A DNA stretch of 64,000 nucleotides from Lama glama. Lineage: Eukaryota. Made by a program: the position numbers and the translations under genes. Position 1 is the first letter of the stretch. The number at the start of each line of letters is the position of its first letter. The stretch covers positions 90,336,001 to 90,400,000 of the forward strand of contig CM052816.1 in NCBI GenBank assembly GCA_028534125.1. Direction: 5' to 3'. The notes beneath the pieces are model-generated. The model saw only the letters and a program-made list of their open reading frames with translations, had not been told where the DNA came from and did no database searches. Below are positions 27,431 to 59,489 of the stretch, in pieces.

Positions 27431-29417
27431 TAATTAGTCATGGAAACAGACATTCACATAGATAAGAAAATTATTTCTAAAGTATTACCAAGTCATTCTT
27501 CAGTGTTGTGATAATTTTCCCTGGCCCCTATACTTTTGTCCTAGTCCTCTAGAATAGAAGCTAATACAAGCTTCCAATCAGAAAGCAGTTATTAATGACA
27601 CAAATATTCTTGATGGATTTGTGCTCATACCAAATAGAATGGGACTGATTGTTAAAAATGAGGTATTTACTGATCTGGCTGAGCCCCCAGGCCTAGAACA
27701 CAGAAGCTGGAGGGGTACCTTGAAGCCCTGTGGTTCTAGATTATACCTTTCCATTGCTGGATGGTGGAAATGTAAGGAAAATCATGGAGGAAGGGGAACA
27801 GAGGAGATGCCAATTCGATTGGGGAACTCAGGGTAACCTACCTACCAAATTTGGAGATGTATTTCTATATAGTTTAACCAGTAAGATTCTGCCACTGACA
27901 AAAGTTCAGCCTTGATTGATACCTGGTTTACATGTGCAAAATAGGGGGTCAAAAGGGAGTCTGATGCTGGTGGTCTAAGCCAATAGCAAAGAGAGACAGA
28001 CAGACAGAGACGGAGACAGAGAAACTGAGAGATGAATGGGGAATGAACAGCCCTTTCATGCTGGAGCCAAACAAAGAGGCATTAATTTTCAATCTTTGAA
28101 TCTGGTGATTACTCCAGTCTGGACATTTTAGTGACTGAAGTGAGACTGTTCTTTGGGGCTTGATTTGGGCTCATTATCAGCTAAGCATAATCGAATTAAA
28201 ACCTGAGGTAGACCTCCGAGTTCATCCAGGGACATGGAGGGAACTATCCCACAGTCTGAGTTTAAAAGATTAGAGGCAGGAAAAGCAAAGTATGTTGGCT
28301 GTTTGCACCTTAACATTCATTCAATAAAAGAAAAGGTCACGATAGCAAAGCATCCAGCTTGAACTTCAGCTGCCGTTGGGACAGGGCTCCCTTGTCTGAA
28401 CAGCCGGTAGGAGGAGCCAGGGGTGTTTGGCACGGTGGTTTGTTGTGTTATATTTGGTCGGTTTGGGTTTTGTTTGGAAGCCAGCACTCGGAAAGAAAAG
28501 AGTATAGAGAACCAGAATGACTCCACGCTCAGCTGCACGTGACTGAGACTTTTGGAGAACACATCAGGCAGAAAGGTCCCCCTGAGATGCAGGGTATCCA
28601 CAGCTCAGCTGCAGGGCAGCAGACAAGCTGGAAGCCCCTGAGGATGCGGACAAGGGAAGTGCCCCCCATCATATATAGACAACGGGGGTTTTGGTAAAGA
28701 CTCCAGGAGATCAGCGCCAGGGCTGAACCTCAGACCTCGTACTTCAAGGAATAGAAGAGGTGAATTTGGGACTTGGACTCAGGGTGATCTGGCAGCCATG
28801 GTCACTGTGCAGTGTTGTCCCAGTGACTCTGAAGGAGGGACAGAAAAAGAGAAGGTGAAGCCAAGGACAGGCTAGATCAGCAGTTCTCAAACTTGTAAGC
28901 CCTGGGACCCCTTCACATTCTTAAAAATTTAGTAAAGATGTCAAAGAACTTTCGTTTGTGTGGATTTTATCATTACTTACCAGATTAAAAATTGCAACTG
29001 AGAAATGTTTTAAATGTTTTATTAAATTTTTAAGTACGTGATAAACCCATGATATGTTAATACAAATGACATTTTTCATGCAAAATAATTATATTTTCAA
29101 AGAAAAATTAAAAAGTGAGGAGTGACAGTGTTTTACAATTCTGCCTATCTCTTTAACATCTGGCTTAATAGAGGACAGCTGGATTCTTGTCTGTGTTTGT
29201 GAATTCACTCTAGTATGATAAGTTGCTTTGGTTAAAGTATACAAAGAATTTATATGAAGCATATATGTCTGTGAAGAAAATTTGGCGCCACACAGATGTC
29301 TACTTGGGACAGAGTGGAGTATTTCAATAGCTGTTTGAGATCATTGATAAGGCTCTTCCAATTTTTAGATTATTTTATTACACATTATCAAAAACTGACA
29401 TTCATTAACATCACCAC

Positions 29418-45850: not shown

Positions 45851-48151
45851 AATAAGACAGGAGCCCTAACCAAAAAGCCTGAAATAGATGGACTGGTCCC
45901 CACAGAAAGATTTCCCTGGAAGATCTTCCGAGAGAAAGATCTCTTGCTTCTTTACACTTTCTCTTTGCTTTCTCCCTGACATCCTCCTTTCACACCTCTC
46001 TGATGATCTTCACAAGTCACTTCCTAGTGTGGATGCTTAGAAAAATCTAGAATTTCCACACTTTTAATATGTCACAATAGGAAGCGACAGTGCTAAGAGC
46101 TGTAGGGAAAGTTGGGTATAAAAAATAGTTGTCATCATTTATTATTAAAAATAGGACACCATCTTTTTAAGTTTGTGTCCCAGTTTCACATAGTCACCAG
46201 TAGACAGCATATCCTCACCATTCCTGTAAAAATAAAAATAGTTTTAGTCTTTTAGACAAAAAGAAATGCTAATAAAGAAAGGAAAAGAGCTGATTTCTCA
46301 AGAACATTAGGAAGCTGGCTGTGCATTTTTAATGTATCAACTTCAATAATAAATGACTGTACTCTGTGAAATCACAGCATGGGTATTGGCTCTTCCAGGG
46401 AGAGTCTGACTTACAGCACCTCTCTCCCTGAAACCACCAAGAACCCGACAGATTAAACAGAGGAGTAGACAGATTTTATGGAACTTCCTGTTTAACTCAA
46501 TGTATTGTCCTAGGCTAACTCTGTGTGTAGCCAAATACCAAACAAACAAAACTCAAGTAAGTCATTAATTAATACTAAATAATACATTTCTTTTCTTCTC
46601 TGGTTGTAATAATTAACCCAGATTCCTTCATGGCTGAAGCAACTGATGCCACCTTCGCCCTCAGCAAAATGACAAGATTTCACTTTGGAATAGGCTTATC
46701 TTCACCTCATGCCCCTTTCTTTTCTCTCTCCCACCCACTCCCTGCAAAACAAGCTTCTATCTTGGCTGTGTGCTTCTTGTTGAGAGAGGGTCTTCTAAGG
46801 ATAGTTAAGATCCACAGGAAGAAATATCTCCTGTGCATTTTACAATGCCTGAGTTTCTCTCATCCTTCGTATTCATATTTTCCCATCACCCTTGATATTA
46901 CCAAACAGGTAACCTTGGCAGGTCACAAAAAGCACGACACCCTCTCTTTTATAAGAAATGCTACACTCATTCAATCCCGGTGACAATTCCTGTGCGTATT
47001 CTACCAAAAGTGAAATTTAGCACTGTAACAAGAGAACAGATTTTTTCCTGACTTTCATATTCTATTCCTTCAGGAAACAAACAAAAAAAAGTTAGACTGT
47101 TTCTCATCATTTCTGATGCTTTCAAGGTTGGAATAGTGAAATAGAAAGGGAAACAGTGGCTCCAGATTTAGTCTTAAAGGGCCCCTAGTGAGATGTGGAT
47201 ATTCAGCTCTGGGACTACCCACATGTATATTTGATCCCAAGATATAACTACGGACAAGTTGCTCAAGAGACTGGGTGACGTGCTGAAACCTATACAGGTA
47301 GGGGGGGAAAAAGCAATAATACAGGCCCCCTGACAGCATGACCTGTGTCTCCGAGGCACTCCCAGAGACCCGGAACGACTGCAAAGGGGCTGCTTTAAAG
47401 ACAACCACCCTCACGTCAGTGTCAGAAAGGGCTTCTCCAACTATAACCATCTCTCTTTAAACCAATTCCCTGAAAAAGTAGAACTTATTCTTTTCATTTT
47501 TACTGTCAATATTGATGGTGAGCAACTTGAAGTTTCCTTTAAGGAATATAAATACAATGTCAGGCATGGAGGACACAATGATGAATAAGACACCTTGAAG
47601 TCTTCTATTTCAAGCACCTTCTAAGATTCAATTCTGCTTTCCGTGTTCCAGTATAGACACCCTCAAGAAACCGGCTTCCCCACGCTGGCTTTGGTTGCTG
47701 TTCTTCACTCTACCCTTTGAACGAGGCAGCTCAAATATGCAATTTTTCTCTACCTACCTTAAAACCTTTTTCTTCTTCCCGTTTCCTCTTCTATCCCTTG
47801 TCCACATGGACCTAAAGAACATCTTATACTTCCTTACTTTCCCCCATACCTCTCCCCCACCCTAATATTGCACAGTCTCTTCCTCCTTTGGGCCATCATG
47901 CTATTCTACATGGGATCTTCCTTACAAAACTCCATGGACACTTCAAGATTTGGGCCAAATCTCAGCACTCAAACTAACCTTCCACTGACATTGAACATAC
48001 ATCTGTTTATCACATTATATTATAATTAGCAATTTTTATGTCTACCTTTTATGTCTCAAGGGAAGGAATATACCAATGCCCCAACTAACCACCTAGCCCT
48101 TTGCAGATATCCATTATATTTTTGTAAATGAAAGAATGCATTGTCAGTTAA

Positions 48152-53889: not shown

Positions 53890-54891
53890 CAGGGGTGTGC
53901 TGTAAAGGTTTAACCACCTGCTCTTATGAGGGAAAAAAAAAATGTAAGGGTATCTATGTGCACAGAAGTTTTACTAACACAAAGGGATGTGTGGTACACA
54001 ATTTACAAAAACAATAAAATATGCAATACTCTTTACTGTAAACATTATGTAGCCAATTTATTCTTGCAGAATATTTAGCCTGGTTTTTGCTGAAATCTTG
54101 TATTCATAGCCAAACTATAGTTGCAATTCCAACATGATTTCATTAAATTAGGCTATGAATAAATGCTTGATTACTTCCTAATTCAGAAGTGTCATGTCAT
54201 TGACAAGCTAATATAGTTCTGACATAAATATTAGTTGATATTTCCATTATTGTAATGTGTGATACAAAAAGGGGAAAATGAAGAAAATGAAAATGTATGT
54301 GACAACCTCACTCATTCACTAATGATGTGAGGACATATTTGCCCAATCAGATAATAGTTTTCAAATACTGGAAGAATATTTCCTCAATCTTTTGTGCTAT
54401 TCACAATATGATAGCTTTAGACATGACATATTCAAGCTTAATCTACCTTATTAACATTTTTCTGTTACTTTCTTAAGTCTAAATAATCAACAAAACAATA
54501 AATCAAACCCTGATGAAGTGAAGTGAAAGAGAAAGCATTTGCCAGTTTCTGTGGTGTGAATACTCCCATCATGACCAATTTCAAACTCTAGTGTAAGGTC
54601 ACTGAACACAGAGATGGGAAGATACACCAAAATAGCACACCATTACATGGCTTTGCCACCAGATTGTCCTAATAGACAGAGACCTACAGGAGCAGAAATA
54701 ATAGTAAAATAACTAGGAAGTGATGAGTTCTGAGTATCTATCAACTGTGGCTTTAATATAATTTATTTAACGGTAAGTTCATATAATTTGATTTTTAACA
54801 ATACCCATGTTTAGTAACGATGTGGCAAAATTTCTAAAAATTTCACAATTTGCTCTCTCGAGCCAGTATGAGCCCCTCCAGTGCACCAGTG
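53890..54891. mobile_element. MER63-like hAT-Blackjack DNA transposon (~1 kb)
   Basis: Ends caggggtgtgctg ... ccagtgcaccagtg; internal gtggtgtgaatactcccatcatg and aggaagtgatgagtt match recalled MER63; degenerate 8-bp flanks gttttatc/gattgttc. Confidence 0.75.
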
Positions 54892-55364
54892 GATTGTTCT
54901 TTCTAGGTCATTTACCCTTTCTTGCTACTTGTCACAAGCACCATGCTACGTAATGACAGTTTCCTCTTGAAGATCAGAGAGTTGGGGATGAGATCCTTCT
55001 TCTCCGTCACTGGCCCATGCAGACTTGGAACATTACAGACGTTCAGTAGGTGCTTGTAATGAATACATGAAACACTAAACATTTGCCCCTTTCAAGCCTG
55101 GGACGTGGGGAAAATTCTGTTGCAAACACTCAGCAGTTTTTACTTCCTATTTTCATCTCATTACTGACTCAGCTTAACAAAGGCTTCTCTTCTGGTATTA
55201 ATTCACATTACAGAAAGCTCATATAAATATTAATTAGGCAATTTCTGTACATTGCTCACATTTGGTACTAACTCAGAGAATCATATTAAAACAGAAAGAA
55301 CCCCTGTGCTAGGTACACTAGTGAACTTTCTCATGCTTGTTATTCTCCTGACCCACCTGCCCCC

Positions 55365-55788: not shown

Positions 55789-56920
55789 CCCTCAGTATTT
55801 GGTAATACTTATCAATACATAAATTTCAGTGAAGCCTCATGCCAAAGAATGCATATAGTAAGAAATACCAATTCAAAAAACTGGCATATCATGTAGTGAA
55901 TAGAACAGATAATCAATTACAGTAGTATTAACAACTGACTTAATAGGATCTTGTCAGCTCTAAAATTGTGATTTGAAATGCATCTTTGTGGAAATAAAAC
56001 CATGTATTAGCTTAAATAATAAATATTCTGCTTATTGATTCCGTTTTCAGTGTGGTTTAAGAGTTTATTTCAAGGTCTGCATGAAACAGAACATTCTAAT
56101 CCAAATAACAGTTATACTGAGAGTATTTAGTCATTTGCATTATCAGTGTAGTATCCGGAAGTCTGAGGTGGGTTGAAATTGGCAATACAAATGAAAACTA
56201 GCCTAGTTCACATTAGAAATCATTAAAGGGTGAAAATGACCTTAATCTCTACAAAGGAAGGGCATATTTAATGATCCCTTATTAGCTAACTCCCATCATA
56301 TCCAATTACACGGGCAAATCCAGACACAGAAGACACTTGGCATCATTGAACAATTACCATTCTCAAGTGAAAGGTATTTGATTTGTATATTTCCTTTATT
56401 TAAATAAGCTTTGAATTCAAAGAGATGAAAAGACAAAGCTAAAAAGCATCCTCTTAAAATTCCACCCCAATTAGCCAGATGAGAATACTAAATGACCATA
56501 TGCTACAAAGGAATTAAATCCGTTGTATTTACATAGCCATTTAACATATAGGAAAAGCAGAGGACCGGAGATCTACCTCCAAGTTATTTTTCTGTCATGA
56601 CCACGTAGACATTGCAATAGTTGTGCACTCTTTAGGCATTAACTGATGACAATTAAACATTTAGATAAGTGTAGATTACTTCATAGTCACCTCAGTCAAA
56701 AATGGTTAAAGAGGAGGGGGTGAAATTTTTACAGATAAAAGAAATTGCATTATGAGGCCAAATGTGAAATATTAATATCCCAAAGCAAATTTAAAATACT
56801 CTAAGTTACTTCAAATAATGTTTCTAATAATTTTTTAATCCTTGACACAAATTATTTAAAAAATGCTCTTTTAAATTGTTTTTGGCAACTTTCACCTATG
56901 GCTTTCACAAGTATCTGAAT

Positions 56921-57119
56921 TTTTAAGTCCACAAAAACAATTTGATTAACCTAGTTAGTGAAGACTCCATCCCTTTGCATGTCCAACCCCCTCAAAAGGA
57001 TGGGGGTGGGTGAGGGAGAAACCTGTGGTGGAAATCTCTCCTATCCCTCAGCATTTAAGACAAGAGGGAGGAGAGGGGCTGTGCAAATAGGTCGCCAAAG
57101 ATGGGGCAGAAGGGGAGTA
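56921..57119 (-). other. 3' UTR of RNF167 retrocopy with short A-tail remnant
   Basis: GC-rich UTR-like sequence follows the TAA and ends ...GGTTAATCAAATTGTTTTTGTGGACTT-AAAAA, then drops abruptly into AT-rich flank; resembles my recollection of the RNF167 mRNA 3' end. Confidence 0.7.
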
Positions 57120-58178
57120 TTAGATCTGGATGGCAGCTGAAGAGGAAGAGGATGGAGAAGGGGAGGCATCTGTTGAAGACCCAAGAAACACAAAGGGGGC
57201 TGGGGCTAGGGAGCCAAAGGATTTGGGAAGTACGGTGCTGGAGCCTAGAAGTGGGGTCCGTTCTGAGGCAGGGTGGCCCCTTGGCTGCCCTTCCTCCTCA
57301 CCCTCTTGCCCCTGAGTTTCTTCCTCCTGCTCCTCCTCTCCAGGATCCCGATGAACAGGCTGCTTGCAGACTGGGCAGGTCTTCCGGGTCTGAGTGAGCC
57401 AGGGGTCCACACAGCGGCTGTGATAGGCGTGCGCACAGGGAAGGACCCTCAGCTTGTCCCCATCCTCATATTCGTCCAGGCAGATGGCACAGACGTCATA
57501 CTGGTCTCCCTCCCGATAGTCACGTGTAGGAATCAGGTTCAGTTGCTCTTGGGTCAGTCGATTTTGCCGGAGCTCTTTCTGGAGCTGGATAAAACGAACT
57601 GTCATCGCTGCTCCCGTGCCCAGAATTAGCAACCCCAAAATCCCAGTGAAAAGGATGAGGCAATAGCCCAAGAGGAATCTGTTGTCTGGGATCAGAAGCA
57701 CCTGAGCCCCCTTCTGGTAGACGAAGAGGGCGCGCAGGTACTTAGAGCTCCTCTCCCCGATAAACACAGATGGGATCCAGATCTGCTGCTGGATTTCCTC
57801 ATTATTCCACACCATGTTCAGAAGTTCATTGGAATTCACATTGTGTACCACAGCTGCCTCGTACCCAGCCTTCTGAGCGTTTAGGACCTTGAGGTCAAAG
57901 TGGCAGTCGAATCTTCGAAGCAGTGCAATGAAAACTGACCCGTTGACCCAGGCTGCGGGCGGTGGGGCTATGGGGCTGCAGGCATTGGCTGGGTGAGCCT
58001 CCACAAGGAACCCCTTAAGTCCCTCCCCGCTCAAGGCAGCCCCAAAGAGAGCTGGGAGGTCTGCAAAGTCCATGCTGGCATTGTGGTCCGAAGTCGCTCG
58101 AATGAGGCCCTGGAGAGGGGCCGCGCCCCACAGCACAGTGGCCACAACGACGGGAAGCCGGAAGGCCGCAGGGTGCAT
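57120..58178 (-). CDS. RNF167: Intronless RNF167 retrocopy with intact ORF (352 aa, PA-TM-RING-H2 E3 ubiquitin ligase); retrogene or young processed pseudogene
   Basis: Translation is collinear with RNF167 as I recall it: signal peptide MHPAAF.., PA domain ([23 protein letters not shown]), hydrophobic TM at ~aa168-194, RING-H2 [42 protein letters not shown] (aa230-271), acidic/Ser-rich tail with ERTPLL. No introns, stops or frameshifts, whereas the parental gene is multi-exon. Start context GCTGCCATGC. Confidence 0.93.
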
Positions 58179-58700
58179 GGCAGCAGGAGGAGGCCGTGTC
58201 CTGGTAGCAGAAACAGAAGCTGAGTTCTGAGCGTCTCCCCACTTCCTTCAGGATCCCAGAGGTCCAACCACCCCCAGGTCCCACTTCGCAGCTACATGGC
58301 GGCGCAGGGAAGGAACCCTGGCTCCATCCCCTTCAGTGGAGCTGAGAGACAGACATTAACATATCCTTTCCTGGTATAGGGAGGGGTAAAACGGGGAAAG
58401 GGGATCGTGGCAAGCACAGGTGACAGACAAACTTCTGGAATGGTGGGGGGCTCAAGGAGGTGGAACTTCCACCCAGGTTGCTTTCAGCACTGGATGCTCA
58501 AGATGAAGAACTTCCGGTCCTCTCTTCCTCCCTCTGGCGACAGCCACCGCTGCGGTACCTTCAGGTCTCGCGAGACTGCTCAGCCCACGTCGTTCCCGCC
58601 AGCTGAAATCTCGCTGAGTCCGTCTCGAGATACCTCCTGTTTCTGGCTTAGTCTGTCTCACTTGGTCTCGTGTCCAGACAAGCCAAATTGAGAGACTTCT
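58179..58700 (-). promoter_or_regulatory. CpG-rich 5' leader / inherited promoter-like segment of the RNF167 retrocopy
   Basis: 13 CpG counted in 58501-58680 against a CpG-poor background; GTCTCGCGAGAC palindrome 58565-58576; ACTTCCGGT (ETS) 58510-58518; ACATGGCGGCG (YY1-like) 58294-58304; sharp GC drop at ~58700. Confidence 0.65.
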
Positions 58701-59489
58701 AGCAGATTATTCATTTTAATGTAGATTTTATGACAGTTGATTCTAATTTAAGAATGTGTACCAGTATCTACAAGTGCAAGTCATTTGCTGTCTTACCTCC
58801 CAAACAAGTAACTATCTGAAATCCAAGATAATTCACAAATTCTGTCATTATGATACAGATAACCAGGGATCAACATTTAACATTTTAATTATTTTACCCC
58901 AGTGACCAAATACAATCTTTTAAAACAAATACATTTCTGTTTCCATTTCAAATGCTAGAGTGATAGGAATAAAATCTCATTTCTTTGTGAGGACCATTTT
59001 AAATTAGAAGAAGTTAACTTGCTGGATGTTTGGACTGTCAGTTTTTCTAGGATATTGTAGAGGCTTGGAGGTTTTGATGTAACGTTGAATCCATACGACT
59101 AAGGAAATAACCAGAATATAAAATTACTGAAACTGAGGTAGATTCTTGTCACCCTAGGTCCAGTTACAACATGAAAAAGTCTCCTGTGGTTCCTAATTTT
59201 GCATTTCTACATGGCTATCCTTTTCCTCTTTAAGTGTTATACCTGGAAGTCAAAACCTAGATTAGAAAAGGAAATTATAGGCCACTTTAAATAAAGATGT
59301 GCCTGATTGGCCAAGTCTGGAATGGAAAGGTTTTATTCTCAGCACACTGCCCCAAGTTGTCCCTCCAGACTTGGGTGGGCAGCGTCTCACATTACAGTAT
59401 CACCTTGCCATTTTTGTATATTGATTCCATTTGCCAAAATATTCTTCCAGACTTGTTTCATCTCCATTTTCCCATATGGTCTACCAAAA

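Follow-up and report, generated by a model that had tools for sequence, protein, structure and literature searches.

A probable retrogene of RNF167 in the llama genome: an old, intronless PA-TM-RING reading frame with a diverged membrane segment

An intact reading frame without introns raises the question of whether a processed copy is a pseudogene still awaiting its decay or a gene in its own right and, if a gene, when it arose. The window analysed here, the whole stretch of 64,000 nts from Lama glama, contains such a copy of RNF167, which a preliminary description made from the letters had taken for a functional retrogene and a candidate lineage-specific one. The parent is an endolysosomal ligase whose PA domain is needed for its location and which binds AP-3; it partners UBE2D and UBE2N and has GluA2, VAMP3 and Arl8B as substrates, as described in the available part of PMC8834447. 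The analysis makes it probable that the copy, taken as a whole, is an old insertion that became a selected protein-coding retrogene, had its membrane segment rebuilt and decayed in some lineages.

The copy is that of a full-length processed mRNA comprising 5′ leader, coding sequence and 3′ UTR (56926-58670, minus strand). In blastn comparison with the parent locus found by searching the same genome (L009), 11 blocks follow one another without a break in the window, passing over the introns of the parent, and the copy is colinear with the spliced parental mRNA from its first exon at 58670 to its poly(A) site at 56926. All eight parental coding introns are precisely missing, as is a 136-nt GT-AG intron of the 5′ UTR, while an extra 52-nt gap in the leader is without GT-AG bounds and looks like a deletion rather than an intron. 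The parent itself is multi-exon and on a different chromosome (G000:C24, the copy being on C1), where it stands head to head with a gene that, from its first exon, we take to be SLC25A11. Its last exon matches the alpaca RNF167 entry at 99 of 99 residues and its protein differs from that of the wild camel parent at 5 of 350. The intact 352-codon frame of the copy (57120-58178, minus strand) has an ATG start and is 87% identical in nucleotides to the parental coding sequence. GC content is 0.555 in the island of approximately 1.75 kb, 0.50 in 57001-59000 and 0.376 in the window. The earlier reading of an intronless RNF167 copy with a multi-exon parent, a full 352-codon frame, flanks resembling UTRs (they align to the parent's leader and 3′ UTR) and a GC-rich island in AT-rich DNA is borne out by these comparisons. 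No other ORF of at least 120 aa in the window looked coding. Lesser rises in GC and CpG occur at 28001-29000 and 47070-47456, the second with a short frame resembling by eye a retroviral-type repeat, and at 54000-54900 there is an old dispersed repeat, which matches many places of the genome at 67-80%.

At the 3′ end of the copy (56920-56947, minus strand) the poly(A) signal AATAAA has become AATCAA; homology with the parent ends 13 nts past the signal and the A tract is down to five A. A flanking ATTAAA (56834-56839, minus strand), found by pattern match, is a candidate replacement. As expected for an old insertion, no clear target-site duplication is present: there is no flanking direct repeat among the 20 largest repeat families shown, and by eye only a degenerate match. 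The insertion site is about 190 kb beyond the BASP1 coding exon, in a region homologous to human 5p15, and the same contig carries NNT, ANKH, HMGCR and a MyTH4 myosin. (An ANKH-family match on a small separate contig, G000:C115408:533-760, supplies positions that the main ANKH locus, on C1, lacks and probably reflects an assembly gap.)

The protein has the order of parts of a PA-TM-RING E3 ligase, as judged by Pfam and hydropathy: a signal peptide, a PA domain (aa 55-144; 57747-58016, minus strand; PF02225 above cut-off), one transmembrane helix (aa 166-195; 57594-57683, minus strand) and a RING-H2 domain (aa 229-272; 57363-57494, minus strand; also above the Pfam cut-off). All eight RING ligands are kept (C230, C233, C248, H250, H253, C256, C268 and C271), as are the PA residues K97 and V98 of RNF167, the sequons NAS at 33, just upstream of the PA domain, and NGS at 79, within it, and the acidic dileucine motif ERTPLL (aa 306-311; 57246-57263, minus strand; motif check of the translation). 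Ligands, sequons and dileucine motif had been read correctly beforehand, and the 'dozens' of amino acid changes named there come to 60 of 350 aligned residues, 290 being identical. The top match among solved structures is the RING of RNF13 (5zbu); a structure predicted from a 14-row alignment had a mean pLDDT of 40, and no use was made of it. Because the RING, K97, V98, the sequons and the dileucine motif are kept, compartment, E2 use and ligase activity are predicted to be like those of RNF167: the product would be a glycosylated RING-H2 ligase of type I membrane topology, which its PA domain and dileucine motif direct to endosomes or lysosomes and which the same E2 enzymes serve.

Is the frame under selection? 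The coding sequences of copy and parent from the same genome give dN 0.091 and dS 0.309; the pairwise ratio is 0.29, with a bootstrap interval (0.20-0.44) that excludes 1. Of the 62 differing alignment positions, 49 changed on the branch of the copy, 10 on that of the parent and 3 are ambiguous, which makes about five times more amino acid change for the copy; its own-branch ratio, the check proposed at the outset, is therefore nearer 0.4-0.6 (about 0.39-0.57 by a rough split of the changes). The RING has one nonsynonymous change (I270V) against nine synonymous in 50 codons, dN/dS 0.03, and the luminal part (aa 26-165) has 13 changes in 140 codons. The transmembrane and juxtamembrane segments together have 24 changes in 60 codons, and equal clustering was reached in 0 of 5000 shuffles. 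Judged from these comparisons, purifying selection on the copy is evident. The preference for a functional retrogene over neutral decay thus holds, the RING ligands being intact in 32 of 34 related copies as well.

The transmembrane segment is diverged, with 11 of its 30 residues differing from the parent, and is still hydrophobic (its best 19-mer scores 2.57 in hydropathy, that of the parent 2.53). In the cytosolic juxtamembrane segment that follows (aa 196-225; 57504-57593, minus strand), 13 of 30 residues differ, three of them through CpG transitions, and the basic cluster is reduced; the net charge of aa 195-208 is +3 in the window copy and +6 in the parent. In a set of 34 RNF167-like rows, sorted from 19 parent rows by name and residues, this charge is +4 or less in 33 of the 34 copies and +6 in 18 of the 19 parents. 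Mean identity to the parental consensus is 0.66 for the transmembrane segment, 0.75 for the juxtamembrane segment and 0.92 for the RING in the copies, and 0.97, 0.99 and 0.98, respectively, in the parents. Three lysines of this region, K210, K214 and K223, are replaced in the camelid copies, while most other copies keep them; they are ubiquitination sites of human RNF167 in the available part of PMC8834447 (Table 2). Positive selection in aa 196-225 (14 nonsynonymous changes, one synonymous) was considered and not accepted: the segment was picked afterwards, 3 of the 13 changes are CpG transitions, and its dN of 0.24 is near the gene-wide dS. Adaptation and relaxation are both candidate causes of the divergence.

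Relaxation on the scale of the whole gene is a rival reading. A once-functional retrogene, redundant with its parent and slowly being lost, would acquire a divergent membrane segment by drift; the mutated poly(A) signal, the long branches and an own-branch dN/dS of about 0.5 fit such a history. So does the fate of related copies. The fin and gray whale rows are without some RING ligands, and two more entries from baleen whales carry a low-quality mark; those of toothed whales start at Met36; the tails of pig and pangolin-type copies read out of frame; and the N33 sequon is lost in canids, several bats and insectivores. However, the RING is 92% identical to the parental consensus across the 34 rows, the frame is intact in the window copy and in three Camelus proteins, and the changes cluster in one 60-codon stretch instead of being spread evenly. 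On balance slow loss of a redundant copy is possible, though rather unlikely. Of the frameshifts or stops in orthologous copies that the preliminary description had named as telling against function, some are seen in baleen whales, the pig tail and the pangolin, which points to decay in single lineages and not to neutrality of the whole family; ExxxLL is kept in 31 of 34 rows. Since a copy enters the protein databases only if its ORF can be predicted, losses are undercounted and the apparent conservation is inflated. No horse or rhino copy is among the matches listed.

The preferred reading, a retained retrogene, leads to the question of age. Besides the normal RNF167, entries labelled 'RNF167-like' exist for Camelus, hippo, pig, cattle, sheep, goat, whales, cats, dogs, bears, seals, mustelids, bats and insectivores (examples are XP_064340670.1 of dromedary, DAA17812.1 and F1MFJ1 of cattle, and XP_044894522.1 of cat); the copy type was not seen outside Laurasiatheria among the matches listed, the main protein search listing the best 120 of 1015. 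These entries are likely orthologues of the window copy, to judge from their sequences. For other camelids, pig, cattle and whales, where the preliminary description had proposed to look at the syntenic locus, there are protein entries of the copy type, some with decayed ORFs. In a quick tree of 56 rows, 30 bat, artiodactyl and carnivore rows form one clade (SH-aLRT 97) whose branching agrees with the species tree, and four insectivore rows stand apart. Canid copies such as P0081 (dog) and P0086 (arctic fox) have very long branches and many Ala, Gly and Arg residues, a pattern that strong GC-biased change would produce. In more careful trees (32 rows, LG+G4, with 24 rows left out and two pig near-duplicates dropped from all trees) artiodactyl and carnivore copies group at 87/77, and all 18 copies form one clade weakly, at 80/42.

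Could RNF167 have been copied several times? Independent retrotranspositions in artiodactyls or ferungulates, in bats and in insectivores, each kept as a gene, could have come to look alike through CpG decay of Arg to Gln. RNF167 did give rise to at least two retrocopies in this genome, and the second, which is decayed, also has CGG changed to CAG at codon 200. As CpG decay can hit identical Arg codons in copies of separate origin, the tree was repeated without 38 columns that are Arg or CpG-prone; artiodactyl and carnivore copies then group at 96/93, with bats and insectivores outside the supported clade. AU tests on all columns reject camelid-only (p 6e-10), artiodactyl-only (p 0.0001) and carnivore-only (p 0.0025) origins, and do not reject a clade of the insectivore copies with their parent (p 0.23). 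With the CpG-prone columns removed, a camelid-only origin is again rejected (p 0.0006) and an artiodactyl-only origin is not (p 0.12). Against separate origins stand also changes shared by the copies that are not of the CpG kind: P169L in 26 of 32, V185I in 27 of 33 and D281E in 22 of 32. The contigs bearing copies (lengths: cattle 72,042,655; sheep and buffalo 71-83 Mb; dingo 88.75 Mb; cat 239 Mb) fit in size what we take to be the BASP1-bearing chromosomes, and on this presumed mapping the chromosome sizes are consistent with a single insertion site. Orthology across species rests on the protein trees together with these assumed chromosome sizes; a metagenome scan for orthologous loci with flanks returned two loci, neither of them a mammalian orthologue. 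Separate retained insertions appear doubtful on this evidence. The safe reading is that the copy arose before artiodactyls and carnivores parted, some 70-80 million years ago; insertion at the base of Laurasiatheria is likely but unproven. Either way the 'lineage-specific' of the preliminary description has to be given up.

Nine RNA-recorded runs contain part of the copy, and eight of them, in two studies, have 0.21-0.41 of 182 sampled words (runs with a share of 0.10 and below, and raw-read rows, were left out of the evidence). A parent at 87% identity would share approximately 1% of 31-mers, and by our own arithmetic a share of 0.4 fits a relative of about 97% identity. The word share being so far above the parent's, the eight RNA-seq runs contain the copy type. 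Four of the eight are labelled reproductive system, which lends weak support to expression mostly in reproductive tissue; presence alone cannot separate intronless RNA from DNA carry-over. X1/X2 isoforms exist in the databases for RNF167-like entries and suggest transcript support for these genes.

Some of these isoforms lack 39 aa of the PA domain, corresponding to a possible cryptic, in-frame GT-AG intron of 117 nts (57888-58004, minus strand). Six were found (dromedary, hippo, sea lion, meerkat, vampire bat and flying fox), with none among the parent-type proteins fetched. The GT and AG of the interval are also present in the parent's exon 3. Recurrence of the isoform suggests real transcripts with a putative cryptic intron; an annotation artefact is possible. 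The leader of the copy retains 10 of 26 aligned parental CpGs and two inherited motifs. One is CCGGAAGT, at 58510-58517 (minus strand), which we take to be of ETS type; with two occurrences in the window, a number reached in 5 of 100 shuffles, it is weak. The other, from the parent's first exon, is a perfect TCTCGCGAGA at 58566-58575 (given without strand), the sole match in the window and seen in 0 of 100 shuffles; the parent has two. TCTCGCGAGA is the BANP motif in the available part of PMC10206803. An inherited parental promoter, which is the minority route, and intronization are both described for mammalian retrogenes in the available part of PMC4772013, and as a matter of sequence pattern the window copy, with its parental leader motifs and possible cryptic intron, resembles them.

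The history that these observations suggest would be as follows. A full-length RNF167 mRNA would have been reverse-transcribed, presumably by L1 machinery, and inserted beyond BASP1 before the artiodactyl-carnivore split, possibly at the base of Laurasiatheria, with presumably the same single site in other species. Transcription would probably have come from promoter elements carried in with the parent's CpG-rich first exon. The rebuilt transmembrane-juxtamembrane segment would probably give other membrane partners, another substrate reach or a turnover of its own, the most likely outcome being a reproductive-tissue ligase with changed partner choice or stability. In some lineages the retrogene would later have decayed. 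A bolder version is quite tentative: that one insertion at the Laurasiatheria base gave a fourth Godzilla-type ligase, which has escaped study because humans and mice do not have it, that it is expressed in the germ line from an inherited BANP/ETS promoter, that positive selection on the transmembrane-juxtamembrane segment has turned it to other membrane substrates, that it has a conserved PA-deleted splice form, and that whales, pigs, pangolins and perhaps horses independently lost or crippled it.

That the copy is a neutral processed pseudogene, with a frame left open by luck, is very improbable by comparison with the retained gene. Protein searches did give no peptide: the supplements of two bull sperm proteomes contain none that is copy-specific, and a ZNRF4 control is absent from them too. 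But in a neutral simulation of 5000 runs, before indels, a stop-free frame survived in 3.0% at d=0.10 and 0.4% at d=0.15. The UTRs, which differ from the parent by 0.16-0.21, have 21 indel events per 643 aligned bases and the coding sequence one in-frame 6-nt indel; the UTR rate adds a further, rough survival factor of 5e-4 to 1e-5, if one third to one half of the UTR indels are on the copy's branch. The dN/dS interval and frames intact in dozens of species tell the same way. What neutral decay looks like can be seen in the second RNF167 retrocopy of this genome (L004 56-783, G000:C126606), which may serve as a natural control: it has stops, frameshifts and an internal deletion, is 72-78% identical to parent and window copy, and has 2 CpG in the compared segment, where parent and window copy have 18 each. 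A young camelid-specific retrogene can be set aside: the best protein match is a Camelus protein (98% identity, among the best 120 of 1015), but dS from the parent is 0.31 and UTR divergence 0.16-0.21, AU tests reject such an origin, and the copy shares a clade with other artiodactyl and carnivore copies.

The retained retrogene differs from RNF167 (RING105), with which it shares domain order, sequons, RING and dileucine motif, in lacking introns, in its chromosomal place and in its rebuilt membrane region. The same genome has a single-exon PA-TM-RING gene, 46% identical in a 405-aa frame (L002, G000:C11), presumably ZNRF4, and two more, 3.5 kb apart and 28-31% identical (L008, G000:C7), presumably RNF133 and RNF148. 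The Godzilla branch consists of RNF13, RNF167 and ZNRF4, the last with testis-restricted RNA (available part of PMC8834447). ZNRF4 (Nixin, sperizin), as a relative of RNF167 on that branch, is like the copy; it is much the older and more divergent gene, occurs in both human and mouse and is ER-localised, whereas the copy keeps RNF167's UTRs and sorting motif. Single-exon, testis-restricted members are already known in this family. Since retrogene birth of this kind is common, the general lesson is modest.

The retrogene is an old one that stands in RefSeq, GenBank and UniProt under the automatic label 'RNF167-like' and is apparently unstudied. In open-access full text and bioRxiv no paper was found that describes the RNF167-like genes or unites them as one retrogene family, and the supplements of a dog retrogene paper, where gene ids may be used, contain no RNF167 text. 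If the reading is true, livestock, pets and bats have an additional, unnamed E3 ligase, which human and mouse work cannot reveal. Read mapping, antibodies and primers may confuse the copy with RNF167. Since the copy combines conserved catalytic and luminal parts with a changed segment that is almost invariant among parents, the two genes offer a natural domain-swap pair for the role of the transmembrane-juxtamembrane part of RNF167.

Two further kinds of sequence were met among the relatives. Pig-type P0167 and P0169 (Logan) begin with residues that correspond to a translation of intron 4 of the parent at its 3′ end (L009:5879-5938); they are either assembly chimeras with the parent or come from a suid copy having intron 4. 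P0097, of Chinese hamster, is RNF167-like but degenerate; its juxtamembrane residues are of the parent type, and it probably represents an independent retrocopy in rodents.
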